NCBI GenBank assembly: GCA_963422645.2
Contig: CAXXVO010000006.1
Location: 96,001 to 160,000, forward strand
Direction: 5' to 3'
Length of the DNA: 64,000 nucleotides
DNA from: Alphaproteobacteria bacterium
GTDB taxonomy: Bacteria > Pseudomonadota > Alphaproteobacteria > UBA828
Part shown: piece by piece, positions 340-61,179 of the stretch
Position numbering within the stretch: position 1 is the first letter of the stretch
Layout of the letters: each line of letters opens with the position of its first letter
Position numbers and translations under genes: made by a program
Notes under the pieces: model-generated
Database searches by the model: none
Told to the model about the DNA's origin: nothing
What the model saw: the letters and a program-made list of their open reading frames with translations, nothing else

Positions 340-488
340 CCAATTCACGGCCCTTTCCGGGCCGGATTCGCAAAGACTTTCGTCCGGCCCGCCAGACCCC
401 GGAAACGCCGCCAACCCCTTGACCGTCCGCCATCTTCCGCCTTCTTCCCGGCATCTTCCGGATTCGCAATGACTTTCGTCCCCCTACA
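340..488. mobile_element. Mu-like/Tn7-style transposable element end
   Basis: CCGGATTCGCAA(A/T)GACTTTCGTCC at 362-385 and 458-481; terminal CTACA at 484-488; IS sequence begins abruptly at 489. Confidence 0.7.
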
Positions 489-2867
489 CCAATTGCACGG
501 GGTCTCAACCATGCCCAGTACCCTCCCAATGTGCCCTCCAGAGGCGGTCTCGATCGGCAACAGCTGCTTCGCCGTCCTGATCTCGGACGACACCTTCACC
601 TACTTTTCCAACCTCATTCCCTTTGACAGCCACGCCGCCGATGACCGCACGGCCATGCTCTTGCGGATCGGCCGCCTCGCGGCGATCAGCGCGGTCTCGC
701 CGCAGGAACTGGCTGACGCTTTCGCTGTCTCGCGCGCGACGGTGCAGCGCGCACGACGGCGCTACCTGGCCGAGGGCGAAGCGGGGTTCATGAAGCCCCG
801 GCGCGGTCGCGGGCCGTCGGTGTTCACTCCGGAGTTGGCGGAGAAGGCGACGGCGTTGCTGGCATCGGGCCTGAGCGGCTCTGCGGCGGCCCGGGTTCTC
901 GGCGTGTCAGCGCCATCGGTCAACAAGTGGCGCCGTCAGGGACTGATCGGCAACACGGAGGCGGATGGGGAGCCCGGACGCTCAGCGCTGGCTGCGCCGC
1001 CTGACGCGGGTGCGGCTCCTGAAGGCCGTGTCGATGAAGAGAGTACCGGTGCCCCGGGGCCGGAGACGGCGCCGGGGCTGGAAGCGCAGCCGCAAACGGA
1101 TCGCAGCGCGCGCGATCGGCGGGACCGGCAGGCGCCGATGGGGCGTGCGACTTGCGATGTTCCGGCTCGGGTTCTGGCCAGTTGTGGACAGGCGGGGCCG
1201 GTCGAACCGCAGTTCGCCGCCGCCGCCCGCGGTGTCCGCTTCGGCGGCGTGCTCGCCGCCCTGCCGGCCCTGCTGAAGGAAGGTCTTCTCTCCGAGACCG
1301 GTCTCCTGCCATTGCTGCCGAAGGGCTATTACGGCTTGCCTACGATCCTGCTCTTCCTGGCCTTCATGACCTTGGCGCGGGTGCGCAACCCCGAGAGCCT
1401 GCGCTACCAGGCGCCGGGCGAATGGGGCGCCATTCTCGGCCTCGATCGCTGCCCCGAGGTCAAGACGCTGCGCCGCAAGATCGCTCTCATCGCCGACGAC
1501 GAGGCCGGCGTGCGGGCGTGGCAGCTCGCCCTTGCCAGGCGCTGGCAGGCCGACGAGCCGGAGCTCTGGGCGACGCTGGCCATCGACGGGCACGTCAAGG
1601 TCTACTCCGGCCGCAAGGGGCGCTTGCCCAAGCACTTCGTCTCGCGCGAGAAGCTGTGCCTGCCGGCGAGCGCCAGCTACTGGATCAACGCTCTGGGCGG
1701 CAAGCCGCTGCTCTGTCTGCACAAGCCGCTGGACCCGAAGATGGTCGCGGCCATCGAAGCCGACGTGGTGCCGGCGCTGCAGGAGCTTGGGATCGTTGGC
1801 GCCGGGGCGCCGGACCTGACCGCCGAGCATCCCGGCCAGCCGGCGCTCACCCTGGTCTTCGACCGCGAGGGCTGGAGCCCGGATCTGTTCCGCCGGCTGG
1901 CGAGGCGCGGCGTCGCCTGCCTGACCTGGCACAAGAACTTCAGGGGCGAGGACTGGCCGGCCGAGGACTTCGGCGCGATGACCGTTCCCATTCACGGACC
2001 GGCGGCGGACGGCAGCGCCACCATGCGGCTGGCTGAGAAGCCGGTGACGTTGCCGAACGGCTTCAGGGTGCGCCAGATCCGCCGCCTGCTCGACAACGGC
2101 CGTCAGGTGCCGCTGATCACCACCGATCCGCACAAGCCGATGGCTGAGGTTGCGGGCGCCATGTTCTCGCGCTGGTCGCAGGAGAACTTCTTCAAGTACA
2201 TGCGTGACGAGTTCAATCTCGACGCCCTGCCGACCCACGAGCTCGAGCCTCTCGATCCCGCCGCCATGGTCGTCAACCCGCTGCGGCGGGCCTATGACAA
2301 GGCAATCCATCGCCTCGACCGCCAGCTTGGCCGCCTGCGCAACCGCATCGCCGACACGGCCCGGAAGAAGCAGCCGACGGCGGAACTCAGGAGGGAAGTC
2401 AGGGACCTCCAGGATGTCCGCGACATCGTCAGGGCCAGCCGCAGGGAGACGCCCAAGCACTGCCGGGCCGGCGACCTCGACGAAGCCGAGCAGCTCGATG
2501 CCTTGCCCGCGCGCGAGCGCCTCCTCCTCGACGTCATCCGGATGATCGCCTACCGCGCCGAAACCCGCATGATGCTTCCCGTCATGCAGGCGCAGGGCCA
2601 CAAGCCCCATCCCCGGAAACTGCTTCAAGCGCTGCTCACCGCCGATGCCGACATCCTGCCGGATCCTGGCAATGGCCTCCTGCGGGTCCACATTCTTGGC
2701 CTCGCAAACGACGCCTGCGACCGTTGGATCGATGCGGTTCTGAGCGACCTGAACGCCACCGAAACGGTCTTCCCCGGCACCCGTCTGCGCATAGTCTACG
2801 ACATCGACGGGGCCTCGGAATCCGCGCGGCTCGTGTCACCTAAAATCAGCAGAGGTCAGGAAGTCTG
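489..2867 (+). mobile_element. Unclassified IS (ISNCY-like) copy 1, left end removed at the Mu-like junction
   Basis: Matches copy 2 from CCAATTGCACGG onward; right IR GAGGTCAGGAAGTCTG ends at 2867. Confidence 0.8.
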
Positions 2868-2868
2868 A
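511..2868 (+). CDS. Large putative DDE transposase with N-terminal HTH motifs
   Basis: HTH-like segments; motifs IDGHVKVY, LVFDREGW, RWSQENFFKY; duplicated at 18465-20469 between terminal IRs. Confidence 0.8.
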   Translation: MPSTLPMCPPEAVSIGNSCFAVLISDDTFTYFSNLIPFDSHAADDRTAMLLRIGRLAAISAVSPQELADAFAVSRATVQRARRRYLAEGEAGFMKPRRGRGPSVFTPELAEKATALLASGLSGSAAARVLGVSAPSVNKWRRQGLIGNTEADGEPGRSALAAPPDAGAAPEGRVDEESTGAPGPETAPGLEAQPQTDRSARDRRDRQAPMGRATCDVPARVLASCGQAGPVEPQFAAAARGVRFGGVLAALPALLKEGLLSETGLLPLLPKGYYGLPTILLFLAFMTLARVRNPESLRYQAPGEWGAILGLDRCPEVKTLRRKIALIADDEAGVRAWQLALARRWQADEPELWATLAIDGHVKVYSGRKGRLPKHFVSREKLCLPASASYWINALGGKPLLCLHKPLDPKMVAAIEADVVPALQELGIVGAGAPDLTAEHPGQPALTLVFDREGWSPDLFRRLARRGVACLTWHKNFRGEDWPAEDFGAMTVPIHGPAADGSATMRLAEKPVTLPNGFRVRQIRRLLDNGRQVPLITTDPHKPMAEVAGAMFSRWSQENFFKYMRDEFNLDALPTHELEPLDPAAMVVNPLRRAYDKAIHRLDRQLGRLRNRIADTARKKQPTAELRREVRDLQDVRDIVRASRRETPKHCRAGDLDEAEQLDALPARERLLLDVIRMIAYRAETRMMLPVMQAQGHKPHPRKLLQALLTADADILPDPGNGLLRVHILGLANDACDRWIDAVLSDLNATETVFPGTRLRIVYDIDGASESARLVSPKISRGQEV

Positions 2869-3362
2869 ACATATTGATCGAGCTCGACGGGCGGCCGGCA
2901 CTGGACGTCTTCAAGGGGGAGATCGGCGAGGAGCTCGCCAGCGATCTCCGCCGGGTCGGCGGCCTCATCTTCGCTTCGCTCCCGGTCTCGGGCAGCGACA
3001 CCGGCGACTACCTGGTGCGCAACATCGTGGGCTTCGACGTCGACCGCGGTCTGATCGGCATCGGCGAGCTGGTGGAGCGCGGCACCCAGCTGCAGTTCTG
3101 CCGCCGCGATGCGGCTGCCGCAGAGCACGACCTCGGCCGCATGGTGGAGTCGGTGAAGCGCCGGGCCGGCGCCGAGCCGCGCGGCGCCCTCTATTTCACC
3201 TGCCTCGCCCGCGGCCCCAACATGTTCGGCGAAGCCTCCGAGGAGCTGCGGCTGATCGAACGCACTCTCGGTGACGTGCCCTTGGTGGGCTTCTTCTGCA
3301 ACGGCGAGATTTCGCACAACCGGCTCTACGGCTACACAGGCGTCCTGACCCTCTTCCCATAG
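2868..3362 (+). pseudogene. FIST C-terminal domain protein, 5'-truncated at the IS boundary
   Basis: NILIELDGRPAL...CLARG...GFFCNGEI motifs; no N-terminal FIST domain; abuts the IS right end. Confidence 0.75.
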
Positions 3363-3371
3363 GTCGGCCGG

Positions 3372-4391: not shown

Positions 4392-4401
4392 GGGCGCCCT
4401 G

Positions 4402-10117: not shown

Positions 10118-10129
10118 GCCTGGCTGGCC

Positions 10130-20468: not shown

Positions 20469-20469
20469 A
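18465..20469 (+). pseudogene. Inactivated transposase
   Basis: +1 A near 19501, plus a 354-bp deletion (copy-1 positions 1861-2214) at a TTC microhomology. Confidence 0.85.
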
Positions 20470-44369: not shown

Positions 44370-45914
44370 ATGACCGAGCAGATCCTGATTCTCGACTTCG
44401 GCTCCCAGGTGACCCAGCTCATCGCCCGCCGGGTGCGCGAGGCCGGGGTCTACTGCGAGATCCGGCCCTTCACGACTCCCGCCGCCGAGATCGAGCGCCT
44501 GGCGCCGCAAGGCGTCATCCTCTCCGGTGGCCCGGCATCGGTCACCGAGGCGGAAGCGCCGTGCCCCGACGAGGCGATCTACGCGCTCGGCATCCCGCTT
44601 CTCGGCATCTGCTACGGCCAGCAGACGATGTGCGCCGCGCTGGGCGGCGCCGTGGAATCCACGTCACAGCGCGAGTTCGGCCGGGCGCACCTCGACATCG
44701 TCGAGCCCTGCGCGCTCTTCGACGGGGTCTGGCAGGTGGGCGCGCGCGAGCAGGTCTGGATGAGCCACGGCGACGCGGTGGCGGCGCTGCCGCAAGGCTT
44801 TCGGGTGGTGGCCCGCACCGAGTCAGCCCCCTTCGCCGCCATCGCCGACGACGAGCGTCACTTCTACGGCATTCAGTTCCATCCCGAAGTGATGCACACG
44901 CCCCACGGCGCGGCGCTCCTGCAGAGCTTTGCGCGCCGGATCGCGGGCTGCCACGGCACCTGGACCATGGCCTCGTTCCGCGCCAGCGCCATCGAGGCGG
45001 TCCGGGCGCAGGTGGGTGACGGAGGGGTGATTTGCGGGCTCTCCGGCGGCGTCGATTCCTCGGTGGTGGCGGTGCTCCTGCACGAGGCGATCGGAGACCA
45101 GCTCACCTGCGTGTTCGTCGACACCGGCCTGATGCGCCAGGGCGAGGCCGCTGAGGTCACGGGCCTCTTTCGCGGCAGTTACAACATCCCCCTCGTCCAC
45201 GAGGATGCGCAGGCCGTGTTCCTTGAACGGCTCGCCGGCGTCACCGAGCCCGAGGAGAAGCGCAAGATCATCGGCGCCACCTTCATCGACGTGTTCGACG
45301 AGGCCGCGCGCAGTGCCGGCGACGCCGACTTCCTGGCCCAGGGAACGCTCTACCCGGACGTGATCGAATCGGTCTCCGTCAGCGGGCCGAGCGTCGTCAT
45401 CAAGTCGCACCACAACGTCGGCGGCCTGCCCGAGCGGATGAACCTCAGTCTGGTCGAGCCGCTGCGCATGCTCTTCAAGGACGAGGTGCGCGCCCTCGGC
45501 CGCGCCCTCGGGATGCCGGAGGCGCTGACCGGGCGCCACCCCTTCCCCGGCCCCGGCCTCGCGATCCGCATTCCGGGCGAGGTGACGGCCGAGAAGGTCG
45601 CGGTCCTGCAGCAGGCCGACGCCATCTTCATCGAGGAAATCCGGAGCGCCGGCCTCTACGACGCCATCTGGCAGGCCTTCGCGGTCCTGCTGCCGGTCCA
45701 GACGGTGGGCGTGATGGGCGACGCGCGCACCTACGAGCATGTCTGCGCGCTCCGCGCCGTCACGTCGGCAGACGGCATGACCGCCGACTTCTACCACTTC
45801 GACATGAGCTTCCTGGGCGGTGCCGCGAACCGCATCGTCAACGAAGTGAAGGGCATCAACCGCGTGGTCTACGACGTGACCTCCAAACCGCCGGGAACGA
45901 TCGAATGGGAGTGA
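44370..45914 (+). CDS. guaA: GMP synthase (glutamine-hydrolysing)
   Basis: [35 protein letters not shown]. Confidence 0.97.
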
Positions 45915-47968: not shown

Positions 47969-48269
47969 AAAAAGAGATAGAAGATGGTGGTTAGGTAGGT
48001 GATTGGGATATGCGATGGTAGTCCATTTAATGGTTTTATATCAGGGGGATAATTAGTAGTCAACTATGGAATTGAGAATTGAGTGAGCTATGGTATGAAG
48101 GGTGAGTGTTGTTGTGATAGTGACATTTGGGTGTTGAGTGGTAAGAGAAAAGGCGTTGTAGGATGGGGGTTGTGGGATGAAATCTAATAAGAGATATGAG
48201 GACAATATGGTTGTGACGGTTTGGCCATGGTAGATATAGGGTGTCTTCCATAGGGGCGCGGGCAGGCTG

Positions 48270-48602
48270 GTGGCGGCGAGACAAAAGGGCGAAAAGCGGA
48301 AGCAACGCTGGGTCGGTGCAACGGATGCCGAATGGACTGAAATCAGCGAAGGCGCGCAAGCGGCAGGATTGTCAAACTCCGACTACGTCATCCGGTGCTG
48401 CCTCGATGGCAAGGCGCGTGCCGACCCGACCGACGTAGGTCTGCCCCCGCCGGTGCTGCGCCGCGCGGTGGAGGCCGTATTGATTCTCGAGGAACTGCAA
48501 AGGCAACGTCTCGTGAACGATGGCGAGACGGGCGAGCTGATTTGGCAGAAGTCGATTGCCAAGGTGGAGGCCTGGATGAAGGGCGAGGGCGGTCTGGGGT
48601 GA
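48270..48602 (+). CDS. Ribbon-helix-helix/MobC-like protein 1
   Basis: VGATDAEWTEISEGAQAAGLSNSDYVIRC resembles the MobC/RHH pattern. Confidence 0.55.
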   Translation: MAARQKGEKRKQRWVGATDAEWTEISEGAQAAGLSNSDYVIRCCLDGKARADPTDVGLPPPVLRRAVEAVLILEELQRQRLVNDGETGELIWQKSIAKVEAWMKGEGGLG

Positions 48603-48615
48603 AACGGAAGAGGCC

Positions 48616-48942
48616 GTGATCCTCGCGAAGAAGCGCTGCATCTACTGCTCGCCAGAGAGCCGGGAGAAGATATGGCGGCGGGCCAAGAAGGCGAAGATGC
48701 GGTTTTCGCCCTTTGTCATTCTGTGCTGCCGCCAGGCGGCGAGCGCGAACCCTCCTCCGGCACCGCCCGGTCATCCGCTGGTGCTTTCCGAGGACGCACA
48801 GCGTGGTCTTTACGAGGGAAGCCGCCTCCTCGCCCGGTCGACGAAAGTCGTTATCGATGCGCAGGAAGGTGGGAAGGTGACTCTGGCGCTGCATGAAGCG
48901 ATGCGCATTCTGCTGCTCTGCGAAGAAGAACGGGGGTCATGA
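48616..48942 (+). CDS. RHH-like protein 2
   Basis: IYCSPESREKIWRRAKKAKMRFSPFVILC; LVLSED motif similar to paralogue 3. Confidence 0.5.
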   Translation: MILAKKRCIYCSPESREKIWRRAKKAKMRFSPFVILCCRQAASANPPPAPPGHPLVLSEDAQRGLYEGSRLLARSTKVVIDAQEGGKVTLALHEAMRILLLCEEERGS

Positions 48943-49100
48943 CAAAGCCGCGCGTCCGAAAGAAGCGAACGGAACAGACGATTTCCGTAACTGCCCAGGT
49001 CGTCTGATTTGTCATTTTGGGCCAGTGGATTGAGGCGTTTCTCGTTCGGAGTTGGTGGAAAGGGCTTGACGGGAATTTCGGGAAATGACTCAACAACGAC

Positions 49101-50606
49101 ATGAGCAATCCCGAGTCGCCGCGCGGCCCTTCGACGGGAGCAGCGCCCGAAACGCCCGCGCAGAAGATCGCCCGCCTGGAGGAGGAGAACGCCCGGCTTC
49201 GGGAGGAAAATGCCTGGCTTCGGCAGCAGAACGCGCGGCTGGAAGAGCAAGTCGCGCGTCTCGTCGAGCGCATCGAGGAGTTGGAGCGCCGTCTCGGCCT
49301 CAACAGCGGCAACAGCGGCAAGCCGCCTTCGAGCGATGGGCTGAGGAAGCCGAATTCGAAGCGGCGAACCCGAAGCCTGCGCGGCAAATCGGGCCGCAAG
49401 CCCGGTGGCCAGCCCGGCCACAAGGGCAAGACGCTGCGCCGCGCCGATCACCCGGATCGGGTGAAGGATCACGTCCCGGCTTCCTGCAAGGGATGCGGTT
49501 CGCCGCTTTCGGACGCGGCCAGGGCGGGAACGCCCGTCGCCCGCCAGGTGTTCGATCTGCCCGAGCCGAGCCCCCTGGAGGTGACCGAGCACCGGGCGCA
49601 TGCCAAGTGCTGCGGGCATTGCGGGACGGTGACCCGGGCGGCGTTCCCCGACGGGGTGTCGGCGCCGGTGCAGTACGGCCCGCGCATTGCCGGGGTGGCG
49701 GTCTACCTTCAGCACGCTCACTTCCTGCCGGAGGATCGGCTGTCGCAGGTGATGGCCGAGCTCTTCGGCGCGCCGGTGACGGCTGCGACGTTGGCGACGA
49801 TGAGCGAGAGGGCGGCCGAGCGGCTGCGGGACGCGGCCTTGCACATACAGGACCTGGCGGCGGGCACGGCGCGGGTGAAACACATGGACGAGACCGGCTT
49901 GCGGATCGGCGGTCAGACGCAGTGGCTTCATGTGATCTGCACGCCGCTGCTGGCGGCGTACCGGGTCAGCGGCAAGCGCGGCGCCCTGCTCTCGGGTGTC
50001 TCCGGCATCGTCGTGCACGATCACTGGAAGCCGTACTTCGCGATGGAAGGGGTGGAGCACGGCCTGTGCAACGCCCATCACCTGCGGGAGTTGCAGGCGC
50101 TGGTGGACATCGAAGGGGAGGCTTGGGCCCGGCGGATGCAGCAGCTCCTGCGCCGAGCCAATCGCGCCGCCCGCATCGCGCTGGACAAGGATATCGCCGT
50201 TCCGGCGAGGCTTGTGGCGCTGATCGAGCGCCGATACGACGAGATCATCGCCGATGCGCTGGCCTTTCACGAGAGCCAACCACCGTTCTCGCCTGGCAAG
50301 AGGAAGAAGCGCCGGAAGCGAAGGATCGGTCACAATCCGGCCTTGAGGCTGCGCGACCACAAATGCGCGGTGCTCCGGTTCCTGATCGACCTCGAGGTCG
50401 GGTTCACGAACAACGAGGCCGAGCGCGACCTTCGGATGATGAAGCTGCGCCAGAAGATCTCCGGGGGCTTCCGGTCCGCGCAGGGGGCCGAGAACTTCGC
50501 CATCCTGCGCAGCGTCATCACCACCGCCAGAAAGCAGGGCTGGAATATCATCGAAGCCCTGACCAGCCCATCGGATCGGCTCATCGCCACCGTCAAGTGC
50601 GCGTAA
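49101..50606 (+). CDS. IS66 transposase
   Basis: Nearly identical to copy A (GHNL changed to GHNP). Confidence 0.93.
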   Translation: MSNPESPRGPSTGAAPETPAQKIARLEEENARLREENAWLRQQNARLEEQVARLVERIEELERRLGLNSGNSGKPPSSDGLRKPNSKRRTRSLRGKSGRKPGGQPGHKGKTLRRADHPDRVKDHVPASCKGCGSPLSDAARAGTPVARQVFDLPEPSPLEVTEHRAHAKCCGHCGTVTRAAFPDGVSAPVQYGPRIAGVAVYLQHAHFLPEDRLSQVMAELFGAPVTAATLATMSERAAERLRDAALHIQDLAAGTARVKHMDETGLRIGGQTQWLHVICTPLLAAYRVSGKRGALLSGVSGIVVHDHWKPYFAMEGVEHGLCNAHHLRELQALVDIEGEAWARRMQQLLRRANRAARIALDKDIAVPARLVALIERRYDEIIADALAFHESQPPFSPGKRKKRRKRRIGHNPALRLRDHKCAVLRFLIDLEVGFTNNEAERDLRMMKLRQKISGGFRSAQGAENFAILRSVITTARKQGWNIIEALTSPSDRLIATVKCA

Positions 50607-50846
50607 GCTCACCTGGCACGGGTTCTCCAACAGCGGAGCCATTCTCATAAACGATCATGGTCGACGCCGTGCTGGACCACCCCATAGAATGAAAATCGGT
50701 GCCCGTCGCGCGGGCGGACTTCGGGCCACATCGGGGTAGCTTACCGGTCGCAGTCCGCAAGAGGGGCATCGTGAGCTGTGTGAGGTGGCCCCGGAAAATC
50801 GGACAGGTGTCTAAGGTGTATTCCACCGTCTGACGGAGGAATACAG

Positions 50847-51131
50847 ATGAGCAGCAAGCGACGCAGATTTTCAGGGCAGCTGAAGGCGAAGGTAGCGCTT
50901 GAGGCGCTTCAGGGTGATCGGACACTTCAGGAGATTGCCTCGAAATACCAGGTTCACCCGAACCAGGTGGGCGCCTGGAAGCGCCAGGCGATCAAGGGGC
51001 TGGGCGAGGTGTTCTCGAAGGGCGCCGAGGGTCGGGTCCGGGACCATGAGAGCGAGGTCCGCGATCTTCACGCCAAGATCGGGGAGCTGATCGTGGAGCG
51101 GGATTTTTTGTCGCGCGGGTCCGGTCGATGA
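50847..51131 (+). CDS. IS3 OrfA
   Basis: KRRRFS..KAKVALEAL HTH; GATTTTTTG candidate slippery site near its end. Confidence 0.88.
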   Translation: MSSKRRRFSGQLKAKVALEALQGDRTLQEIASKYQVHPNQVGAWKRQAIKGLGEVFSKGAEGRVRDHESEVRDLHAKIGELIVERDFLSRGSGR

Positions 51132-52063
51132 GCCGGCCGGAGCGCCGCGCGATGGTGGAGCGCGATCACCCGGCGCTGAGCCTGAGCCGGCAATGCCGCC
51201 TGCTGTCGATCGGGCGCTCCTCGCTCTACTACGCAGCGAAGGGCGAGAGCGCGGAGACCCTGGCGCTGATGCGTCGGATCGACGAGCTGTTCCTGAAGTA
51301 TCCGTTTTATGGCGCCCGCCAGATGGTCCGGCACCTGCGCCGCGAGGGCGTGCGGATTGGGCGCGGCCGGGCCGCTCGCCTGATGCGCCTGATGGGGCTT
51401 GAGGCGATCTATCGGGCACCGCGGACCAGCGCGCCGCATCCCGAGCACCGGGTCTACCCTTATCTGCTGCGGGGTCTGGCGATCGAGCGGGCGAACCATG
51501 TCTGGTGCGCCGACATCACCTACATCCCGGTGCGGCGCGGCTTCCTTTACCTGGTGGCGATCATGGACTGGGCGAGCCGGTACGTGCTGGCCTGGCGGCT
51601 GTCGAACACGCTGGACGCGGGCTTCTGCACGGACGCGCTCGACGAGGCCCTGGCTCGGCATGGCGCGCCGGAGATCTTCAACACCGATCAGGGCAGCCAG
51701 TTCACCAGCTTCGTCTTCACCGGCCGCTTGCAGGCGGCCGGCATCCGGATCTCGATGGACGGCCGGGGCCGGTGCATGGACAACATCTTCATCGAGCGGC
51801 TGTGGCGCTCGCTCAAATACGAGGCGGTCTACCTGCACGACATCGCCGACGGTTTCCAGGCCCGGCGCCTGATCCGTGATTGGATCGGCTTTTACAACGC
51901 CGAGAGGCCTCACTCGGCGCTGGGAGGGAGAACCCCGGCCGAGGCATACCGCGGCGAGACGCCTGTGGATATGATGGACAAGCCGCTACGCGCCTTGACC
52001 ACATCTCCACAGGCGCAACAGCAGCAACAGGAAGATCGATTCAAGAGGATCATGGCGGCCTGA
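51128..52063 (+). CDS. IS3 OrfB (DDE transposase core)
   Basis: WCADITY, NTDQGSQF, DNIFIERLWRSLKYE. Confidence 0.92.
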   Translation: MSRPERRAMVERDHPALSLSRQCRLLSIGRSSLYYAAKGESAETLALMRRIDELFLKYPFYGARQMVRHLRREGVRIGRGRAARLMRLMGLEAIYRAPRTSAPHPEHRVYPYLLRGLAIERANHVWCADITYIPVRRGFLYLVAIMDWASRYVLAWRLSNTLDAGFCTDALDEALARHGAPEIFNTDQGSQFTSFVFTGRLQAAGIRISMDGRGRCMDNIFIERLWRSLKYEAVYLHDIADGFQARRLIRDWIGFYNAERPHSALGGRTPAEAYRGETPVDMMDKPLRALTTSPQAQQQQQEDRFKRIMAA

Positions 52064-53001
52064 GAAACAACCGGAATACACCTTACCTTGGCCGCTAAGC
52101 TGTCCGAATAGGCGAGGCCACCTCAGTGAAACCCGGCGACCACAGAGGAGCACACGGGCGTCGCGTGGGTAGCGTTGTGCCGAATCCCAGAGAATTTTCA
52201 CAGCAAGAACCTGGGCAGTTACCGATTTCCGCGACCGACGAGGAATGGGACGACGTCCACTCAGGCGCAAAGAAGGCCGGAATGACAGCGTCGGCCTGGG
52301 CCGTCCATTGCGCGCTCACGGTAGACCCCTTGCCGCGGAAGCATCGCCGGCTGGTCCTCGACGAGAAAGAGCAGAGGTCCATCCCGAGGGCCGTGGGCGA
52401 GCATGCCCGGAGCCTGATTGCGGACATCGACGCGCCTTCGCAGTTCGCGGACGACCTCGGCGCACTGCTGAAGGCGCGGCTCGAGACGATGGTCCGGGAA
52501 GGCCGGGGCAGCGAAGCCGAGGCGATCCTTCGACAAGTGCTCGGCGACGAGCGGGCGGCAGCCATCGCTGCCGCTCTCTCGGCGAACGCACCGGCGGAGA
52601 CCGCATCGGCGCAGAAACCGCGAAAGAAGGCGTCCCGCCGAAAGAAGGCGCCCTGCAACCCGGATCAGATCGAGCTGTTGTGATCGCTGTGAGGTCGATC
52701 GGGCGAACGCGTGCAACGGCGCGGAGAGAGGACTATCGGGTCAACCCGAGGATGCCTCTGCTCTCGTCCGGATCGGGCTCGGAATACGGGGGACGCCTCG
52801 GGTGATGACCCTTGACCGACGGGGCGAAGGCCGGGGCCGAGGCGGGCCGGCCGGCCAACGAAGGGCCGGAGCGCTCGCCGCGCTGCATCGAACGCGCCCG
52901 GGCCAGGCGCTGGAACGGCGTCCTGCCCGCCACCACGGTGGGCGGCAACGTCACGCCGCTCTTGTCGCTCAAGTGAAGCGGGGGGCGTCGGAGGGACGAT
53001 C

Positions 53002-54369
53002 ATGCTTCTCGAAGTCGTAAAGGCGTTCAGCCGGGAGCACGTCGGGTGGCTCAGCCGTCTCCAGGCATCCGTCCTGCGCGAGGTGAAGGGCGCAGCGGTA
53101 GAGGGCAGTAAGGCGGAGCAGGAGGTGAAAAGGATCTACGATCCCTTGACCGAGGACCTGCGCAAGCAGAACCGCTGGATCCTGTGCAATTGCCTGCCCG
53201 AAGGATGGGAACAGCCGGTCAACGTGCTCGTCCGGGGACGGCACGGCATCCATCTCCGCAACCGTCCCAACGCTGAGGTGCCGCATGACGTGAATTGCGT
53301 CTTCCGCCTGCGCGAAGCATCGCAAGACACCTCCAGATACTTCTTCAATCCGCTGACGCACGGCCGGCAGGGTGCGGCTTCGGGGGACCGTGACCGGCGG
53401 CGCGAACCCGGGGGCCGGGGCGGCCGGGCTGTCCCGACCGTCGCCCGCATTCTCAAATGCTTAATCCGGGAGGCGCGGCTGCACACGCTGGCGGGCGCCG
53501 AGCAGTTTCCGTCTGTGGCGGACTGGCTCGCGGAACTCGCGCGCGCCGCGGCCGCGTTCCCCGTTGCGCCGAACGTTCCGGCGTCGGAGGTGCTGTTCAC
53601 AGACCCCGCGAGCTGGCGCTCGGGTGAATTCCGGGAAAGGCTGGATGCCCGCGCGCAGAAATGGCCGAAGGGTTCCCCGCCCTGCGGCTTCCTGTGCTGG
53701 GTCGCGCACGACGTGGAGGACCACGAGATCAACGGCAAGAGCAGGGGCGCCGGCCACGTGAGGGTGACCTCTCCCGTGGATTCTCCGCTCGTCTACGGCA
53801 AGAGGGTGGTGGGGCCCTATCTCTTCCTGGGCGCGCTGGAACAATCCGCAGACCGGTCCGGGTGGGAGTGCTGCATGGCCTGTGCAATGCCCATCGCCGC
53901 GCCGGAATTGCCGATCCCGGTCGATTCGGACTACGAGCGCCAGGCGGTGCTGTCCCTTCCACAGCTGGTCCGGGACCTGCGGAGCGACACGAAGCTCGAG
54001 GAGGCGCTCGGCGGGGTCGTCGGGGTCGAGCTCCAGAGGCCGCTCTTCTACATAGGGGTGCGCGGAGGCGACTGTCTGCCGGACGGCCTTCTCACCGTCA
54101 CCCGCCCGGGCGGTCCAGCCCCCCGTGTCCCCGGCGGCCCCTTCGACGACAGCGACAAGGTGCGCTACGTCTTCGAGGTCATGGGGTCCGACGACGCGCA
54201 ATACGAGAGGAAGAAGGAAAAGACCCACCGCCGGATGAGACGGCTCGGCCGGGTGATCCGCCTGGAGGGGCGGCAGTTCGGGTCCGCTCACTCCGGCCTG
54301 GAGCGCCAGCTCGAGAGGGCCGCCTTTCGGATCGCGAACGATCTCGTCCGGCGGTGGGGAGGAAGCTGA
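53002..54369 (+). CDS. DUF1173-like protein (Zn-binding N-terminus, PD-(D/E)XK-like C-terminus)
   Basis: CNC...H..NC; LPDGLL...FEVMGSDDAQYERKK; GGAGG RBS. Confidence 0.55.
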   Translation: MLLEVVKAFSREHVGWLSRLQASVLREVKGAAVEGSKAEQEVKRIYDPLTEDLRKQNRWILCNCLPEGWEQPVNVLVRGRHGIHLRNRPNAEVPHDVNCVFRLREASQDTSRYFFNPLTHGRQGAASGDRDRRREPGGRGGRAVPTVARILKCLIREARLHTLAGAEQFPSVADWLAELARAAAAFPVAPNVPASEVLFTDPASWRSGEFRERLDARAQKWPKGSPPCGFLCWVAHDVEDHEINGKSRGAGHVRVTSPVDSPLVYGKRVVGPYLFLGALEQSADRSGWECCMACAMPIAAPELPIPVDSDYERQAVLSLPQLVRDLRSDTKLEEALGGVVGVELQRPLFYIGVRGGDCLPDGLLTVTRPGGPAPRVPGGPFDDSDKVRYVFEVMGSDDAQYERKKEKTHRRMRRLGRVIRLEGRQFGSAHSGLERQLERAAFRIANDLVRRWGGS

Positions 54370-54549
54370 CGGTTCCGGTTGCCGCGGCGGGCATCCGGCG
54401 TCCTGAAAATGCCGGACCGACACGTCGGAGGAGCCCGGCGATCGCCTGAGCCTCACCGGACTCCGCGACGGCCTGGAGCGCACGAGGTAGGGCGGACTAC
54501 CGGGCCCGATCGGTTGTGCGGGAATACGACGCCCCGTGGCATCTAACAT

Positions 54550-56870
54550 CTAAGGGGGCATCATCTTCATGCCATGGTGCGGTCCCGGCTGTTGCAGTAT
54601 GGCCCGTTTCTGGTCGAGCTCCGTATCCTGGGCGTGCTTCCTGGACCAGCGTTCATCCTCGTCCCGGAATGCGCGCCATCGCGCGAACGCGGTGAGTTGG
54701 TCGAGCAAGAGGCTGAATTTCTGACAGGGCTCGTGGTCCGAACGCCAGAGTTCGCGAAGCGTGCAGTGGTCCTCCGCTTCGGTCTTCTCCGCCGTTATAT
54801 CGAGCACCTCCAGCTCGATCTGCACGACCGTCGGGCGACCCAGGCGCGAGTTCTCCGACGCCGCAGTTTCCGATCCGCCGACCTCGCTGCACCACAACCG
54901 GTCGCCCCTGGTGAGATCCCGTGAGCAGTCGAGCGGATAGCTGGCCGGGGGTCCCGGCCACTGGCGCTCCAGTTCGGCCTGCCGGAGCCTCTCGTCGCTC
55001 CACTCCGCCCGATGGACGTCGTAGCCCGCGAGCCTCAGCCCGGACATTCGTGTCACCGGCTCTTCGGGTGTGCGCCCCGTCGCCGCCGCAACCCATTCGA
55101 GCTCCACCATGTCGTTGCGGTCGCATCCGCCGGTCCTTCCGGGCTGGAGCACCACTGCCTCGCGTTGCGGCCCATCGTCCGATAGCCCCAGCGTTATCCG
55201 CTCGCCCACGAGCAGCGGTTCCTGCCCGCCCCAGCGTTTGGTGAATGCATGAGAGGTGCCGGGATCCCGAAGCCGTGCCAGCTCCGCGCCCACCATCTCC
55301 GCGATCCGGTCCTCCTCCAGCCCTGGAATGGCTCTCCGCTCGCTTGCGTGCCGAAGTCCTTGCTCGATGCGCTCAAGCAAATCCGGGCGGCCTTGCCAGC
55401 GCTCCCGGGTGTCCTCGTCCAGTACCCACTGGGCGTCTTCCTCGAACTCGCGGTTTCGTTCCTGCCATGCCGGCCATTCCGACAGCAGGGAGCGGGGAAC
55501 GTCCTCGCGCGCCGCGCGTTCCTCAAGTCGGCGGTATTGCTCGTCTACCGCATTCGCTTCCCGGAACAGGTCTCGGAACGTCATCCATTCGGCTGACAGG
55601 TCGGCATACTCGTCGATCTCGCCCTGCAGCCGGCGCCGGGCCGCTTCTTCCAGGTCCGATTCCCTCGCCAGACGCTCCGCTCGGGCGATGGCCTGGTCGT
55701 ACCCCTCGTCACCGACGGGCGATATGCCCTGCGTCACCGGGCTGGGCTTCGTTTGCTCGATCCCGTCCATCACCGAGACGAAGCGGTCGAGCAGACGGTG
55801 TCTCTCCATCCTCTCCAGCGCGGCAGCCAGTTCTTGCCTGCCGTCCGGTATTTGGTCGAGATGGGGAGCATAGGTGTCTTCGTCCTTGTCAATCTTGCGT
55901 CCCGTGGTCAGCAGCTCCTTCGGGATTTTGGGGAGGGACCGGTAGCCGAGCAGATCGGTGACGAGGAAGTCCGGGTCCTGCCGGGCGCGCCGTTTCGCTT
56001 CTTCCTCCAGGGGGTCCCGGCGCTGCCGATGGTCCTCGGCGTCCTTGAAAAAGCCGACGACGGCGGCGCTCAGCGCGCTCCCTGCTGCGCAGGCGGTCGT
56101 ATCCCAGCACCCGTTGCGCCATTTCCCCGGCCTGGTCAGGCAAGCCCTTCCGCCGGCCAAGCTTGCGGGCCTCCTCGACGAGCTCTTTCCAGCCGGGCAG
56201 ATAAAAGGCGATGACGGTCCCGGCCTTCGCCCGCTCCGCCATCGTCTGACGCTCCTGGAACACCCGCGCCCAGGCCAGGTCGTGGTCGCCGAGTTGATCA
56301 AACCCTTTGACGGCGGCCGCGATCTTCCCCGCTTCATCTTTCAGCCGGTCGAGATGGGGTTTCCATGTATCCGTATCCTTACGCTTGGCGCGCCAGTCTT
56401 CGCCCAACTTCCCGCAACGCGCCAACCAGCCGGCATAGCCCTCCAGTTCCGTGGGCGGGGTGAACGCGGGCCCGCCAGCCCTGCGGGCGCGGTCCTCCAG
56501 CTTCGAGCGCTCGTCCAGAAGGCCGGCCGCAGAGGCATGAAGCGCGACGATTTCCGCCTTCAGTTCTTTGCACGCCTCTGCCTGGTCAAGGACCCTCATG
56601 GCCGCTGCCAGTGTCCATGCCGGCAGGTGGGGCGACTTGGCGAGTGTCGTGGCCCGCTTGACGAGATCGTCGTGGCCCTCGGCGTAGAACGAAATCGTGC
56701 CGTCCGCCGCAGCGCGCGCCGCCACCTCGCCGCGCAGCGTCTCGAAGCCGAGGACCGCATCGTCGACCGCCAGGAGGTCGGCGAGCAGCCCGAGGCGTTC
56801 GGAGATCGTGCTGCCGGCCTCGCCCGCACGCGCGCCCAGCTCGGCGAGCAGGAGCTTGCCCTTCGCCGAC
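54550..56870 (-). pseudogene. C-terminal remnant of a large helical, relaxase-type protein; frameshift near 56075; 5' end replaced by phage DNA
   Basis: Two overlapping ORFs read as one protein; tail QPGPHHGMKM resembles relaxase C-termini; no catalytic motif in the window. Confidence 0.4.
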
Positions 56871-58391
56871 AGACGCCCCGACCACCTCAGCCACGGCCTG
56901 CTCGACGGGGGCCGCACGGGCCGGCTCGTCGCCCTGCACGACGACGGGTGCACCCTCGACCGCGCCGTGCGGATCGCCGGCGCGGCGGGGACCGACTGGC
57001 TGATGCTGCGCCGGCCCGAAGGGGCGCTCGAGACCGTGCGCGCCCATGCCGGCCCGCCCGGCTCCGACGCGCGTGCGGACGGCGCCGAAACCGCCCGCGT
57101 GTGGACAGCGCCCGCGCCGGAGGACGGAATCGGCGAGCCCGTCGACACGCTCTGGCGCCTCTATCCCGCAGGCGCCGGGCCGGCGAGGGTGAAGGTCGTG
57201 GGCGTCAGCCCCAGATCCGGGGACCGGGTGCGCCTCGAGGCCGTCGACGAGGCCGGCGCCTACTACGCCGCCGCCACCGCCGACCTCTCGGTCGATCTGC
57301 CGCAGATACGGCGCAATCTGCCGCGGGTCCTGCACGCCACCGTCACCGAGACCCTGATCCGCGTCGGCGCCGCCTTCCTCGTCGAGATCGCGCTCTCCCT
57401 CACCGTCGCCGGCGACTGGCGCGGCGCCGAGGTCCGCGCGTCGTGGGAGCGCCGGCCCATGCGCACCGTCGCCAGCCTCGACGGCGGCGACACGGAGGCG
57501 CGCTGGACCAGCCCGCCCGAGGGCTGGATCGAGATCGTCGTCCTGCCCCGCGGCGGCGGCCCGCGGCACCGCATCGCATATACGATCCGCGGCCTGCGCA
57601 CGCCCCCCGGCGCCGTCGGCGAGGCCCACGTCGAGCGCCTCGGCGACGGAACCCGGCGCTTCCGCTGGGCCGAGCCGCCCGACCCCGACCTGCTCGGCGT
57701 CCGCATCAGATACGGACCCGCGCCCGGCTGGCCCGCAGATCCGGGCACGCCGTGGGAAGAGCTGCGCGCGATCCACCGGGGGTGGCTCACCGCAAGCCCG
57801 TGGGAGGCCGTCGAGCCCGCCGCCGGCGACTGGGTATTCTCCTTCCGCGCCCTCGACACCGGCGGGCGCTACGGCCCCGAGAGCCGCGTCACCGCGCGCC
57901 TCGGCGCCCAGCGCCGGGGCGAGAGCCTGTTCTGGGCCTGCCCCAGCGCCGAGGGATGGACCCGCGGCACGCTCGCCGGCGCGGCCCTCGACTTCTCCTG
58001 GGCCGATCCCGCCACCGGCGCCGCCGACTACGCCTGGCGCGGCCTCACCACCTGGGACGCCTGGACCGGATGGGCGCTCCCCGGCGCGGCCTGGGCGGCC
58101 GAGCCCACCGTCTACACCTCCATGCCGGCAGACCTCGGCCAGGACGGCGTCGTCTCGGTGCTCGCCTGGGACTCCGACGCCGCCGTCCAGCCGACGGTGC
58201 GCGTGCGCGCCGCCGACTTCCGAGACGACCTCGCCTCCGCCGCCTGGACCGGCTACGCCGCCGGGGACAGGATTGCAGGACGCATCGTCCAGGTCGAGTG
58301 GACCTGGACCTGGGAGCGCGGGCAACTCCCCACCGTCAAGTACCTCTGCTTCGGCCTCGCCCGCGCCCATATCGCCGCGCCGGCGAGCTGA
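56870..58391 (+). pseudogene. Phage tail tip/host-specificity-like protein, 5'-truncated
   Basis: GRL...TLDRAV, VRLEAVDE, FnIII-like WAEPPDPDLLGVRIRY and FRALDTGGRYG; lies upstream of fibre genes. Confidence 0.6.
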
Positions 58392-58412
58392 GTGGGCGCG
58401 AAAGGAAACCCA

Positions 58413-59180
58413 ATGACCGCATGGCCCACCCGGAAGATCGACACCACCCACCTCGACCAGGGCAGCGATTCGCCCGCCCACGCCCGCGTCGCCATAAAGG
58501 CCATGGCCGACACAATCAACGCCATGATCGACGCCTTCGGCGATCCGGGCGGCGTCGCCACCCTCGACGGCTCCGGCCTGCACCCCTTCCGCCAGATGCG
58601 GGGCGAGGTGTTCACCGCGTCCGAGCGCACGCGGCTGGCCAACCTCAGCGAGACCACGCCGCCGCCGCGTCCCGCGCCCACGCCCACGCCGCGCGGGCGG
58701 AAGACCTTCACCACGCCCGGGACATTCTACTTCAAGGTGCCCTCGGGCGTGACCCGCGTGCGCACGCAGTTGCAGGGCGGCAGCGGCGGCGACGGCAGCG
58801 ACTATAGCCGCACCGTCAGCGGCAGGGGCGACTCGAGGACCACCACCTGGCGTGGCGGCGAGGGCGGCGGCGGCGGATTCATCTACTTCGATATCGCGGT
58901 CAGGGCGGGCGGGACCTACCCCGTCATCGTTGGAGGCAACGGAGCGAACGGAGCGCGCGGCAGGGACGGCGCCGACGGCGGCGACACCACCTTCCTCTAC
59001 GGCAAGGCGTACGGCGGCAAGGGCGGCAAGAGAGCGCAATACAACCGCAACGGCGCAGACGGCGCAGACGGAAACTCCTACGCCCCCTTCATGTCGAGTG
59101 TGAGCAACTCGAGCAAGCAGGTCCAGCTCGTCGTGCCCTCCCCGGTCTCCGCCGGCTATGTCGTCGTCGAGTGGGGCTGA
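58413..59180 (+). CDS. Gly-rich phage tail fibre-like protein 1
   Basis: GVATLDGSG; FTTPGT...VP.GVTRV...GGSGG...GYVVVEW; AAAGGA RBS. Confidence 0.7.
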   Translation: MTAWPTRKIDTTHLDQGSDSPAHARVAIKAMADTINAMIDAFGDPGGVATLDGSGLHPFRQMRGEVFTASERTRLANLSETTPPPRPAPTPTPRGRKTFTTPGTFYFKVPSGVTRVRTQLQGGSGGDGSDYSRTVSGRGDSRTTTWRGGEGGGGGFIYFDIAVRAGGTYPVIVGGNGANGARGRDGADGGDTTFLYGKAYGGKGGKRAQYNRNGADGADGNSYAPFMSSVSNSSKQVQLVVPSPVSAGYVVVEWG

Positions 59181-59185
59181 TCGCG

Positions 59186-59341
59186 ATGCGCCGCACCCTC
59201 GTCCCCGCAGGCGGCGGCATCGACAGCACCGCCCTCGCCCTCCTCGTCCTGCGCGAGACCGAAGACGAGGTCGTCCTCTCCTGCAACCGCGCCCGGATCG
59301 CCGCGCCGGCGGGCCGGCGATCGCGAAAGGAAATCACATGA
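59186..59341 (+). pseudogene. Chimeric junction ORF: QueC-like N-terminus fused to tail-gene C-terminus
   Basis: First ~32 codons identical to those from 60126, then RARIAAPA (compare RAHIAAPAS ending at 58391). Confidence 0.7.
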
Positions 59342-60120
59342 CCGCATGGCCCACCCGGAAGATCGACACCACGCACCTCGACCAGGGCAGCGATTCGCCC
59401 GCCCGCGCCCGCGCTGCCATCAAGCAGATGGCGGACACGATCAACACGATGATCGATGCATTCGGCGATCCGAACGGCGTCGCCACCCTCGACAGGTCCG
59501 GCCTGCACCCCGCCGACCAGATGCGGGGCGAGGTATACACGGCTGCCGAGCGCACGCGGCTGGCCGACCTCAGCGATCGCCCCGCCCCGCCGCGTCCCGC
59601 GCCCGAGCCGGCGCCCCGGCCAACGCCGCGCGGGCGCAAGACCTTCACCACGCCCGGGTCCTTCACCTGGCGCGCGCCCGCGGGCGTGACCCGCGTGCGC
59701 GTGCAGTTGCGGGGCGGCAGCGGCGGCAGCGGCGGCAGCCATGAGGCCGACGGCGGCCGCGGGCCCCGCATCACCTACCGTGGCGGCAGCGGCGGCAGCG
59801 GCGGCTTCGTCTACTTCGAGATCGCGGTCTCGCCGGGCACCTCCTACGGCTTGGCCGCGGGAGGCAACGGAGCGGACGGAGCGGACGGCGGCAGCTGGGC
59901 TCGCACTCGCGACGGCGCAGACGGCGAGGACACCGCCGCCTTCGGCGGCACGGCGCGCGGCGGCAAGGGCGGCCGGGGAGCGCATCGCCGAGGCAACGGA
60001 GCGGACGGCGCAGCCGGAACCGCCTCCGCCCCCGCCGGCGCAAGCGGCGTCAGCCGACACACCCAGCTCACCGTGCCCTCCCCGGTCTCCGCCGGCTATA
60101 TCGTCATCGAGTGGGGCTGA
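59338..60120 (+). CDS. Gly-rich phage tail fibre-like protein 2
   Basis: Paralogue of 58413-59180 with diverged internal segments. Confidence 0.7.
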   Translation: MTAWPTRKIDTTHLDQGSDSPARARAAIKQMADTINTMIDAFGDPNGVATLDRSGLHPADQMRGEVYTAAERTRLADLSDRPAPPRPAPEPAPRPTPRGRKTFTTPGSFTWRAPAGVTRVRVQLRGGSGGSGGSHEADGGRGPRITYRGGSGGSGGFVYFEIAVSPGTSYGLAAGGNGADGADGGSWARTRDGADGEDTAAFGGTARGGKGGRGAHRRGNGADGAAGTASAPAGASGVSRHTQLTVPSPVSAGYIVIEWG

Positions 60121-60125
60121 TCGCG

Positions 60126-61007
60126 ATGCGCCGCACCCTCGTCCCCGCAGGCGGCGGCATCGACAGCACCGCCCTCGCCCTCCTCGTCCTGCGCGAGACC
60201 GAAGACGAGGTCGTCCTCTCCTACTACCGCGAGCCGGCCCGCGAACTCCCGGAGCGCATCGCCCGCGAGCAGGCCGCAAGCGAGGCCGTCGCAGACTGGC
60301 TCTCCCGCAACGTCCGGCCCGTGCGCCACGTCAGCCGCGACGCCCTGCGCCTCGACCTCGACGCCGGCGCCGAATACCCGATCAGGGGCGGGAGAGGGTG
60401 GGAGGGCGTCTGCGACCCCACATTCGGCCCCTGGGGCCTCGACCGGTACGCAACCCACGCCGACGAGGCCGAGCGCCACCGCGCCGACCGGGTGATGCTC
60501 GGCATCACCTCGTGGGACACCGCCGACGACATGCACCGCATGTACTGGTATCCCGTCTACCGCGCGCGCACCGCCGTCCCCATGGAACTCCCCTTCTTCC
60601 CCGGCTGGGAGGACGGCGCGCAGTGGCCGCCGTCGCGGGACGACCCCTTCGGACCCGTCGCCGGGCGCTTCATGCTCCAGGCCCTGCTCCCGCCCGGGCT
60701 GGAGGCGCTCACCTGGCGATGCACCGTCGCGGCAGAGCCCTGCGGACGCTGCCCCCGATGCCGCCTCAACGCCTTCTTCGAGCGCTTCTGCCGGGGACGC
60801 CCGGCGGACGGGATCGCCCGCATCGACGACGCCCTCGAACGACACCGCGGCGCAGGCCGATGGTACGCCGACGCCGACCCCGGAAGATGGACCGGTCACG
60901 ACGGATACGACGCCGCAGAACGCGCCGTCGAAGACCCCGAATGGTGGAAGGCCGAACTCGAACGCCCGTGCCGCCCCGGCGCCCGCCCCGGTCCCGACCG
61001 CGCCTGA
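60126..61007 (+). CDS. QueC-like PP-loop (adenine nucleotide alpha-hydrolase) protein
   Basis: LVPAGGGIDST PP-loop and TWRC....PCGRCPRC Zn motif. Confidence 0.65.
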   Translation: MRRTLVPAGGGIDSTALALLVLRETEDEVVLSYYREPARELPERIAREQAASEAVADWLSRNVRPVRHVSRDALRLDLDAGAEYPIRGGRGWEGVCDPTFGPWGLDRYATHADEAERHRADRVMLGITSWDTADDMHRMYWYPVYRARTAVPMELPFFPGWEDGAQWPPSRDDPFGPVAGRFMLQALLPPGLEALTWRCTVAAEPCGRCPRCRLNAFFERFCRGRPADGIARIDDALERHRGAGRWYADADPGRWTGHDGYDAAERAVEDPEWWKAELERPCRPGARPGPDRA

Positions 61008-61099
61008 AACCCCCACGCACCGCCCGTGCACGGGCCCTGAACCCCCCGCGCAGCGCTCCTTCATGGCCCATGCACAGGCCGGTTTTTCCAGCCCGGTTC

Positions 61100-61179
61100 A
61101 GCCCCGAAAACCAGCCGATTTTCCAGGCCATTCGCAAAGACTTCCGGCCGCGATTCGCAAAGACTTCCGGCCGGCTACA
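61100..61179. mobile_element. Mu-like/Tn7-style transposable element end
   Basis: ATTCGCAAAGACTTCCGGCCG at 61130-61150 and 61153-61173; terminal CTACA; IS66 sequence resumes at 61180. Confidence 0.75.

Follow-up and report, generated by a model that had tools for sequence, protein, structure and literature searches.

Which mobile element left two similar DNA ends 60 kb apart on one bacterial contig, each joined to the inside of an insertion sequence (IS)? The window examined here is a whole stretch of 64,000 nucleotides, C7:96001-160000 (GenBank contig CAXXVO010000006.1), of the 5.9-Mb assembly GCA_963422645.2 of an alphaproteobacterium, which is called the window genome (G000). The assembly consists of 23 contigs, and some repeat copies may be missing from it. 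At positions 488 and 61179 of the window, short repeats of one type finish with CTACA and border directly on the interior of an IS. With a probability of about 85%, these ends are two different termini of one Mu-like prophage family that multiplied in this genome and then decayed. The copies are now non-autonomous, because no MuA gene was found in the assembly.

Two different termini in the window

The 15-nt word GATTCGCAA(A/T)GACTT is located at 365, 461 and 61152, and a form with one mismatch is located at 61129, all four on the + strand. With up to two mismatches, the window contains four matches compared with 0.09 expected, and none of 100 shuffled sequences gave four. Genome-wide, the site word has 148 matches, compared with none for the reversed control. 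The repeats that contain this word are predicted, from their arrangement in the sequence, to be bound by a transposase. They form an A end with spaced sites and a B end with abutting sites, as follows.

342–363, + strand: possible degenerate third site of the A end (L3-like), directly beside the inner site, from a by-eye comparison
365–386, + strand: inner 22-bp putative transposase-binding repeat of the A end (spaced, attL-like), with GATTCGCAAAGACTT at 365–379
461–488, + strand: terminal repeat of the A end and CTACA, with GATTCGCAATGACTT at 461–475 and CTACA at 484–488; the last base of the element is 488
61129–61150, + strand: inner repeat (R2-like) of the B end (adjacent, attR-like), with CATTCGCAAAGACTT at 61129–61143
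61152–61179, + strand: terminal repeat (R1-like) of the B end and CTACA, with GATTCGCAAAGACTT at 61152–61166 and CTACA at 61175–61179; the last base of the element is 61179

The coordinates proposed in the first-pass annotation of this DNA were confirmed. CTACA closes both ends, 27 nt separate the start of the terminal site from the last base, a second site lies 96 bp inward at 488, and two 21-bp sites with a 23-bp period precede 61179. The inner A site is likewise 96 bp from the terminal site in the other listed A-type ends, and the B repeats share 21 identical bases at 61130–61150 and 61153–61173. In the possible third A site, approximately 14 of 23 positions agree by eye with the inner B site, and TTTCCAGSC precedes both. 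The annotation had regarded the two as related ends of one kind. They are instead the spaced A terminus and the adjacent B terminus of a family that has 84 termini in this genome.

A family of 84 termini

The end types were defined by reading the sequence contexts of the site-word matches. The 84 termini comprise 41 B ends, 23 A ends and 20 A´ ends, the last being a variant of the spaced type with the terminal site GATTCACAACGACTTTCGTCCGTCTACA approximately 117 bp outside the inner site. The A end finishes with ...GATTCGCAATGACTTTCGTCCCCCTACA, and the terminal A sequence of the window is common to all 23 A-type termini. The B end finishes with ...GATTCGCAAAGACTT-N8-CTACA and has three sites instead of two in one copy. 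A pattern ending in C(T/C)ACA (TGTAG on the other strand) found all 84 termini, one of which has CCACA.

Twenty pairs of termini on the same contig face outward. Each of the 20 is formed by one A or A´ end and one B end, and each is bordered by a perfect 5-bp direct duplication; the elements that they enclose range from 893 bp to 22.7 kb. The duplications fit the sequence N-Y-S-R-N, which is the target consensus of Mu, in 11 of 20 cases compared with a genome frequency of 0.195 (p 4.6e-4). Of all 84 flanks, 37 fit it (p 3e-7) and 82 have G or C at position 3. The duplications, together with the Mu structural genes described below, agree with the earlier proposal that these are Mu-type transposon ends of transposable prophages and that the two window junctions arose independently.

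Forty-four ends are unpaired. Six more pairs with compatible 5-mers can be formed from them on different contigs or at large distances, compared with approximately 0.5 expected by chance for cross-contig pairs (21 × 23 / 1024), which points to rearrangement between copies. Contig C7 has four end sites, all in the same direction and none with a partner. In the window, the sequence from 489 to approximately 46000 is ordinary chromosome with atp F0 genes, smc, mutY, guaA, a toluene/phenol monooxygenase cluster and hydantoinases. The ends at 488 and 61179 therefore do not bound one element.

Two unusual end pairs were also observed. The A´ ends C12:72306 (-) and C12:72755 (+) face outward 450 bp apart and form an A´/A´ pair without a matching duplication, and C5:244783 and C5:252171 form a B/B pair 7.4 kb apart. 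Both look like rearrangement products.

Phage genes inside the ends

Open reading frames (ORFs) were searched against Pfam, PHROGs and NCBIfam. In the paired elements, they match GemA, an SLT lysozyme, Mu gp27, a terminase large subunit, a portal of the Portal_Mu or phrog_10963 type and Phage_Mu_F. Further matches are a head maturation protease, a scaffold, a major head protein, Mu gp36 and a J-like central tail fibre of 1,412–1,990 amino acids (aa). The packaging genes (gp27, terminase, portal and Mu F) point toward the A-type end in a constant order. The Mu-F-like gene is the last gene before the A end, occupying 271–1209 bp from the A terminus, so that its stop codon lies 271 bp from the terminus, in all five A-type elements listed. 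Toward the B end, some copies read J and fibre genes and others a 2OG oxygenase gene and a 146-aa ORF. One duplication-bounded element of 22.7 kb (C8:85071-107742) holds both arms, and its D12 methylase and protease genes diverge in the middle of the element.

The first-pass annotation had placed phage genes inside both window ends, which was confirmed by a Mu-F fragment at 3–215 and by J-like and tail-fibre-like genes at 56697–61007. The genes of the two window stubs are as follows.

1–218, + strand: 3´ end of the Mu-F-like head-morphogenesis gene, with the last 70 codons at 3–215 and the stop codon at 216–218
56697–58391, + strand: 5´-truncated central-tail-fibre (J-like) gene, phrog_31
58392–59180 and 59158–60120, + strand: two Gly-rich tail-fibre or tail-fibre-assembly-like genes (Pfam Gly_rich_2; phrog_863)
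60111–61007, + strand: 298-aa ORF, the last gene before the B end, without a clear family match in Pfam, PHROGs or NCBIfam

All 70 residues of the Mu-F fragment are identical to those of a 312-aa ORF (L007:10935-11873) that matches Pfam Phage_Mu_F and phrog_2468 (head morphogenesis). The A end closes a 1.64-kb stub, C7:94850-96488, which consists of a C-terminal portal fragment, Mu F and the end itself. This stretch is present in 8–28 copies in the genome. Inward, the stub is bounded by an IS21-family copy (approximately C7:92180-94850, just left of the window), and no phage structural genes were recognised in the single-copy DNA inward of that copy.

The B end closes a 4.3-kb stub, which is shared by 7–26 copies and in which DNA homology with other copies begins at approximately 56882. 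Residues 64–407 of the 564-aa J-like ORF align only to residues 660–996 of a 1,444-aa copy, indicating that the J gene lost its 5´ part. The stretch of the 298-aa ORF is common to 16–26 copies. Neither end is the margin of an intact prophage or satellite; each is a solo fragment left by internal deletion. In annotation, the window ends should be recorded as solo prophage stubs, neither as the boundaries of a 60-kb element nor as evidence for IS targeting.

A central fragment of a related prophage was observed at C16:157874-177432. It carries genes for a LexA-like S24 repressor, an HNH protein, a D12 methylase, a protease, a scaffold, a capsid, gp36 and tail S. IS21-family copies cut the fragment on both sides, and neither end sites nor MuA were found in it.

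Relatives with the same ends

Twenty genomes of the same genus and 40 further relatives were scanned for the end pattern. It has 86 matches in the window genome, one match each in three of the 20 same-genus genomes and none in the 40 further relatives. In the genome_contigs collection, the exact B-type end pattern has only three matches elsewhere, in two other metagenome-assembled genome records.

The same-genus genome G006 carries a prophage with both end types on two contigs. From the B-type end, contig C30 reads tail fibre, gp48, baseplate J, gp46, gp45, gp44, tape measure, tube, sheath, gp36, capsid and protease, followed by a divergent methylase gene. Contig C24 encodes a 728-aa MuA (PF02914 DDE_2 with 6e-45, HTH_Tnp_Mu_2 and Mu-transpos_C). 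This gene is followed by a GcrA-like gene, Gam, GemA, Mor, SLT, gp27, terminase, Portal_Mu and Mu F, and the contig closes with a spaced A-type end finishing with ...GCTGCGACTTTCGTCCTTTTACA. Mor was found only in G006 and not among the elements of the window genome.

Two other candidates were rejected. The single end-like match on G011:C1 is surrounded by housekeeping genes and a few unknown ORFs, without a recognisable prophage. Each of the portal homologues on G011:C3 and G006:C64 (52% identity) contains an internal stop; no end sites lie near them, and they were set aside as unrelated remnants.

Junctions inside insertion sequences

The interiors of two different IS adjoin the window ends, as the first-pass annotation had stated.

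489–2868, + strand: 5´-truncated 2,514-bp IS whose transposase has Pfam Transposase_29 and HTH domains; ATG at 511; the first 134 bp are lacking
61180–62409, - strand: truncated IS66-family copy, positions 659–1888 of the 1,888-bp element

Window position 489 corresponds to position 135 of the 2,514-bp IS, and the 150-bp flank is 100% identical to IS positions 135–284; other copies of this IS extend 134 bp further upstream. Its transposase matches Pfam PF21804 (Transposase_29), and no ISNCY match was found in NCBIfam, so the earlier label 'ISNCY-like' is not retained. At the B end, 61180–62409 is 99.9% identical over 1,230 bp to the full IS66-family copy at 46081–47968. The truncated copy is assigned to IS66 by this DNA match, and DDE_Tnp_IS66 was found in the full copies. 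The transposase gene (- strand) is cut after codon 372 of 501. Its frame is open across the junction into the Mu-like end, which gives a 509-aa fusion ORF at 60766–62295 (-).

The 2,514-bp Transposase_29 IS has approximately 100 copies with a median identity of 99.8%, and the 1,888-bp IS66-family element has approximately 106 copies with 99.9% identity. As judged from the sequences, identities of 99.8–99.9% within the families indicate very recent IS expansions. The main repeat families of the genome are these two and the IS21-family element, and approximately a quarter of the genome is repeat.

In total, seven of the 84 termini adjoin the interior of an IS66-family or Transposase_29 copy, at seven different IS positions. 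Over 150 bp, these flanks all match the IS with 100% identity, and the join is in every case located exactly at the CTACA terminus. The transposition of an IS joins its tips and not its interior, and a false assembly join requires shared sequence. Mu-type strand transfer into the IS is therefore the most likely origin of these junctions. The IS copies that were hit are nearly identical, which implies that transposase activity persisted until recently.

The partner ends that the first-pass annotation had proposed to look for are absent: no B end in the assembly is flanked by ATTGG and no A-type end by TTGTG, and all 106 IS66 copies with the upstream 25-mer continue normally. Several routes could have led to the loss of the partners. 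Intramolecular replicative transposition would produce a deletion with a single new junction. A later deletion between IS21 copies would leave a stub bounded by IS21, as the A stub is. Gaps in the assembly might also account for some of the missing ends.

Probable multiplication and decay of the family

Recurrent haplotypes were observed among the ends. Over 190 bp, identical A haplotypes are present in 6, 5, 5 and 3 copies among 23, and 11 of 20 A´ ends are identical. Over 60 bp, identical B haplotypes are present in 12, 10, 9 and 7 copies among 41. All 84 flanks represent different loci. The recurrence of haplotypes at distinct loci, combined with the near absence of the ends in relatives, indicates that at least four sublineages were copied inside this lineage and speaks against repeated infection. 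Transposable phages normally multiply by transposition only in a lytic, cell-killing cycle, and therefore genomes usually hold one or a few copies. The window genome holds 84 termini in 5.9 Mb, compared with none or one in the same-genus genomes searched. Such a phage can evidently spread like an insertion sequence in a repeat-tolerant lineage.

The course of events may be reconstructed as follows. A MuA-type DDE transposase would bind the ~22-bp repeats at both ends, cut at the terminal 5´-TG...CA-3´ and join both ends to the target with a 5-bp stagger. The intact element would have had an arm toward the B end with the protease, scaffold, capsid, tail, J and fibre genes, and an arm toward the A end with the transposase, early genes, GemA, Mor, lysis genes, gp27, terminase, portal and Mu F. 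The 84 termini would correspond to approximately 42 element equivalents. Mu-type strand transfer would have connected each window stub with the interior of a very young IS of approximately 100 copies, and the stub would have lost its other end later or in the same event.

Every copy examined is deleted or ridden with IS, and this state is explained more simply by a decay in place through IS insertion and deletion. The natural series of deletion derivatives marks the minimum end sequence that was retained. The 20 elements with both ends might still be movable in trans. An apparent sharing of an arm between C17:4848 and C7:202925 was rejected as an artefact of chaining tolerance, as IS21 sits at 45 bp in one and at 66 bp in the other.

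The IS21-family element is 2,552 bp long, encodes IstA of 508–517 aa and IstB of 242 aa, and has approximately 61 full copies among 79 matches. Examples are as follows.

C9:570970-573521, C7:200308-202859 and C17:2252-4803: IS21-family copies, a family found genome-wide

Thirteen IS21-family copies lie 45–348 bp inside 14 of the 84 Mu-like termini, at approximately a dozen positions and in both orientations, compared with approximately 0.5 expected by chance (Poisson P 1e-14). Either the IS21-family element homes into Mu-like termini, or the enrichment is a survivor bias after IS21-adjacent deletions. The IS21-family terminus ...GATTGACA resembles by eye the GATTCRCA half of the Mu-like site. 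From this resemblance, the two DDE-transposase systems possibly recognise each other's sites, and such cross-recognition may have contributed to the inactivation of the phage. If the IS21-family element does home, its enrichment immediately within the termini is an instance of a transposon that targets another transposon.

Four or more end haplotypes each recur as 5–12 identical copies. It is conceivable, and we advance it with considerable doubt, that the genome is the fossil record of at least one burst of Mu-type replicative transposition that the host lineage survived, with IS21 cross-recognition involved.

Weighing the explanations

A preference of the elements for IS DNA as target, which the first-pass annotation had inferred, would make IS-interior junctions over-represented. 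It draws on the two window ends and on the seven termini in all that adjoin IS interiors at distinct positions. The repeat background was determined from 3000 random 150-bp sites, of which 767 (25.6%) lie in repeats of at least 5 copies and 595 in repeats of at least 20 copies. The end flanks lie in such repeats in only 12 of 84 and 9 of 84 cases, respectively, a depletion at the lower threshold (two-sided binomial p 0.017; one-sided 'greater' p 0.996). As repeats are rarer in the flanks than at random sites, the idea fails, and we consider it highly improbable. By pairing, repeat flanks amount to 2 of 40 for the paired, duplication-verified ends and 10 of 44 for the unpaired ends. The strong form of the claim, a resident active element that targets IS DNA, is likewise contradicted by the absence of partner ends, the absence of a transposase gene and the depletion of the flanks. 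The two window junctions might instead be assembly chimeras, since both join two repeat families and all seven IS-interior junctions lack a partner. A chimera would nevertheless have to fall exactly at the last base of the transposon, without homology between the Mu-like end and the IS interior, and seven such joins are observed at seven IS positions, all exactly at the CTACA terminus. This explanation is very unlikely.

An origin of the ends from a non-phage transposon (Tn7, Tn5053 or Tn552 kind) that lies beside phage DNA is hardly credible. A 5,189-bp transposon whose genes include those for an rve transposase and an AAA_22 ATPase is often located inside the Mu-like elements, and TG...CA termini, ~22-bp sites and 5-bp duplications are also features of Tn7-like elements. 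The ends of the 5,189-bp element (TGAGCG...CGCTCA), however, are unrelated to TGTAG...CTACA, and it occurs also away from Mu-like DNA. The Mu head genes are at a fixed distance from the A terminus, J, fibre or small tail-side genes read toward B, and the G006 contigs that carry these end types encode a canonical MuA as well as head and tail proteins of the Mu-like kind. A different question is whether the copies shrank in place or were inserted small, as natural mini-Mu-like satellites that a helper still moves in trans. The latter fits the 20 elements that keep both ends and perfect duplications down to 893 bp, the insertions into very young IS copies, which speak for recent transposase activity, and the occurrence of the same end-plus-IS21 structure at different loci (C14:105180 with C8:348166; C10:39703 with C19:86001). 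The shared structures may equally be independent hits, as IS21 has many entry points and is found in either orientation; none of the paired elements is colinear with another over at least 85% of its length, and no helper transposase gene was found in the assembly. On balance, satellites of this type are unlikely, and a multiplied and decayed Mu-like prophage family is preferred.

A number of observations nevertheless weigh against this preference. PF02914 (DDE_2), PF09299 (Mu-transpos_C) and PF09039 (HTH_Tnp_Mu_2) have no match in the window genome, and tblastn with the G006 MuA also gave no match there. The same tblastn search matched homologues of the G006 terminase (71%), Mu F (67%) and GemA (68%), and the PF02914 search detects the G006 MuA gene as a positive control, so that the negative result is meaningful. 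The 113 rve matches in the genome belong to IS3-like elements, IS21-family elements and the separate 5.2-kb transposon. Neither MuA or MuB nor TnsB or TnsC belonging to these ends, which the first-pass annotation had proposed to locate, was found in the genome, and the enzyme for the ends is deduced from the relative. The G006 prophage is itself split over contigs C24 and C30, which would have to join. The only trace of MuB is a 105-aa ORF in C8:85071-107742 with a weak C-terminal match to Phage-MuB_C (E 4e-4, below the Pfam cut-off). No pair among the 20 paired elements is colinear at this threshold, which gives no sign that the deletion derivatives themselves were transposed. The window A flank, CCAAT, has A at position 3, which was found in only two of 84 flanks. 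No reciprocal junction exists in the assembly for any of the seven IS-interior junctions, the two in the window included; simple insertion predicts otherwise, and a second event or assembly gaps must be invoked. The junctions 488/489 and 61179/61180 are observed in the assembly alone.

Neighbouring elements

The 5,189-bp transposon encodes a 205-aa HTH protein, a 536-aa rve transposase, a 294-aa AAA_22 ATPase, a 434-aa AAA_25 protein and a 320-aa DUF3991/Toprim protein, and its full copies include C8:135589-140777 and C9:31295-36483. Eight full-unit copies and one cut by a contig end share 99.8–99.98% identity, and many fragments exist, often in Mu-like elements.

In the window, two full inverted IS66-family copies at 46081–47968 and approximately 48987–50874 flank approximately 1 kb of single-copy DNA (47969–48986). 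They are followed by an IS3-family copy at approximately 50900–52125, and the region lies directly downstream of the guaA gene, whose end is at 45914. From the IS3-family copy to the truncated J gene, the DNA is single-copy (approximately 52300–56880), and its ORFs at 53002–54369 (+, 455 aa) and 54550–56337 (-, 595 aa) have no match in Pfam, PHROGs or NCBIfam. A second copy of the Transposase_29 IS at 18465–20469 is frameshifted or interrupted, with 477-aa and 327-aa ORFs that match the N-terminal and C-terminal parts of the transposase.

Comparison with known systems

The family resembles Mu in its TG...CA termini, in ~22-bp sites with a spaced arrangement at one end and an abutting one at the other, which is the site layout of Mu, in its 5-bp duplications and in its N-Y-S-R-N-type bias. 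Homologues of GemA, Mor, gp27, the Mu portal, Mu F and gp36 are likewise shared, and the MuA of the same-genus prophage has the DDE_2, I-gamma and C-terminal domains. Unlike in Mu, the block of early and packaging genes is inverted, Mu F abuts the spaced end, and the transposase gene is interior rather than next to an end. The copies in the window genome also differ from Mu in lacking a detected MuA and in having a J-type, siphovirus-like tail tip, whereas the G006 prophage has a contractile Mu-type tail. Tn7-like transposons have TG...CA ends, several ~22-bp TnsB-type sites that are asymmetric between the ends and a 5-bp duplication. These end features are alike, but the cargo here consists of Mu phage genes. 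The ORF clusters inside and near all ends were scanned for tnsA-, tnsB- and tnsC-like genes, and none was found between the ends; the only pair of rve and AAA_22 genes near the ends belongs to the separate 5,189-bp transposon.

In the phage collection, the only record that matches the A-type portal is Microcystis phage Mae-JY22 (PP438414.1, locus L029; 52.5% identity). Five of its 31 searched coding sequences (CDS), of 61 annotated, match the window genome, namely GemA, an HNH protein, a Mu-F-like protein, a methylase and one 46-residue match. No transposase homologue was found among the Mae-JY22 CDS compared with the window genome. The record appears to be arbitrarily linearised and was therefore not used for the layout.

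Multiple copies of transposable prophages have been described in Leptospira. The available portion of that survey interprets several copies of one transposable prophage per strain as transposition activity, gives an example of two copies of one prophage in a strain and reports many full-length prophages (PMC8705779). The window genome differs in having 84 termini, none of which is associated with a transposase gene. The same portion mentions engineered mini-Mu and mini-D3112 elements (PMC8705779), which have two phage ends with little between them and are supplied with the transposase in trans. The 893-bp to 2.9-kb elements have the same anatomy; the likeness is one of anatomy alone, and the elements here are natural. 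In a literature search that was not exhaustive, no description of a genome with tens of defective Mu-like copies was found, and the present family may be the largest described set of natural mini-Mu-like elements.

The closest layout is that of Burkholderia phage KS10. According to the available portion of its description, the first ~17 kb of KS10 is apparently inverted relative to Mu, genes for integration and regulation break up the head-assembly module, the genes for the protease and the scaffold sit in the genome's middle part and the tail genes at the right end, and short direct-repeat transposase sites occur twice per end (PMC2628397). A layout of this type is present in C8:85071-107742 and in the G006 contigs, a likeness to the layout as published. 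The same source describes KS10 as a functional phage that lysogenises Burkholderia strains (PMC2628397), unlike the family in the window genome, which comprises dozens of defective copies. The agreement of the layouts means that this kind of Mu-like prophage is already known, and what is unusual is its copy number.

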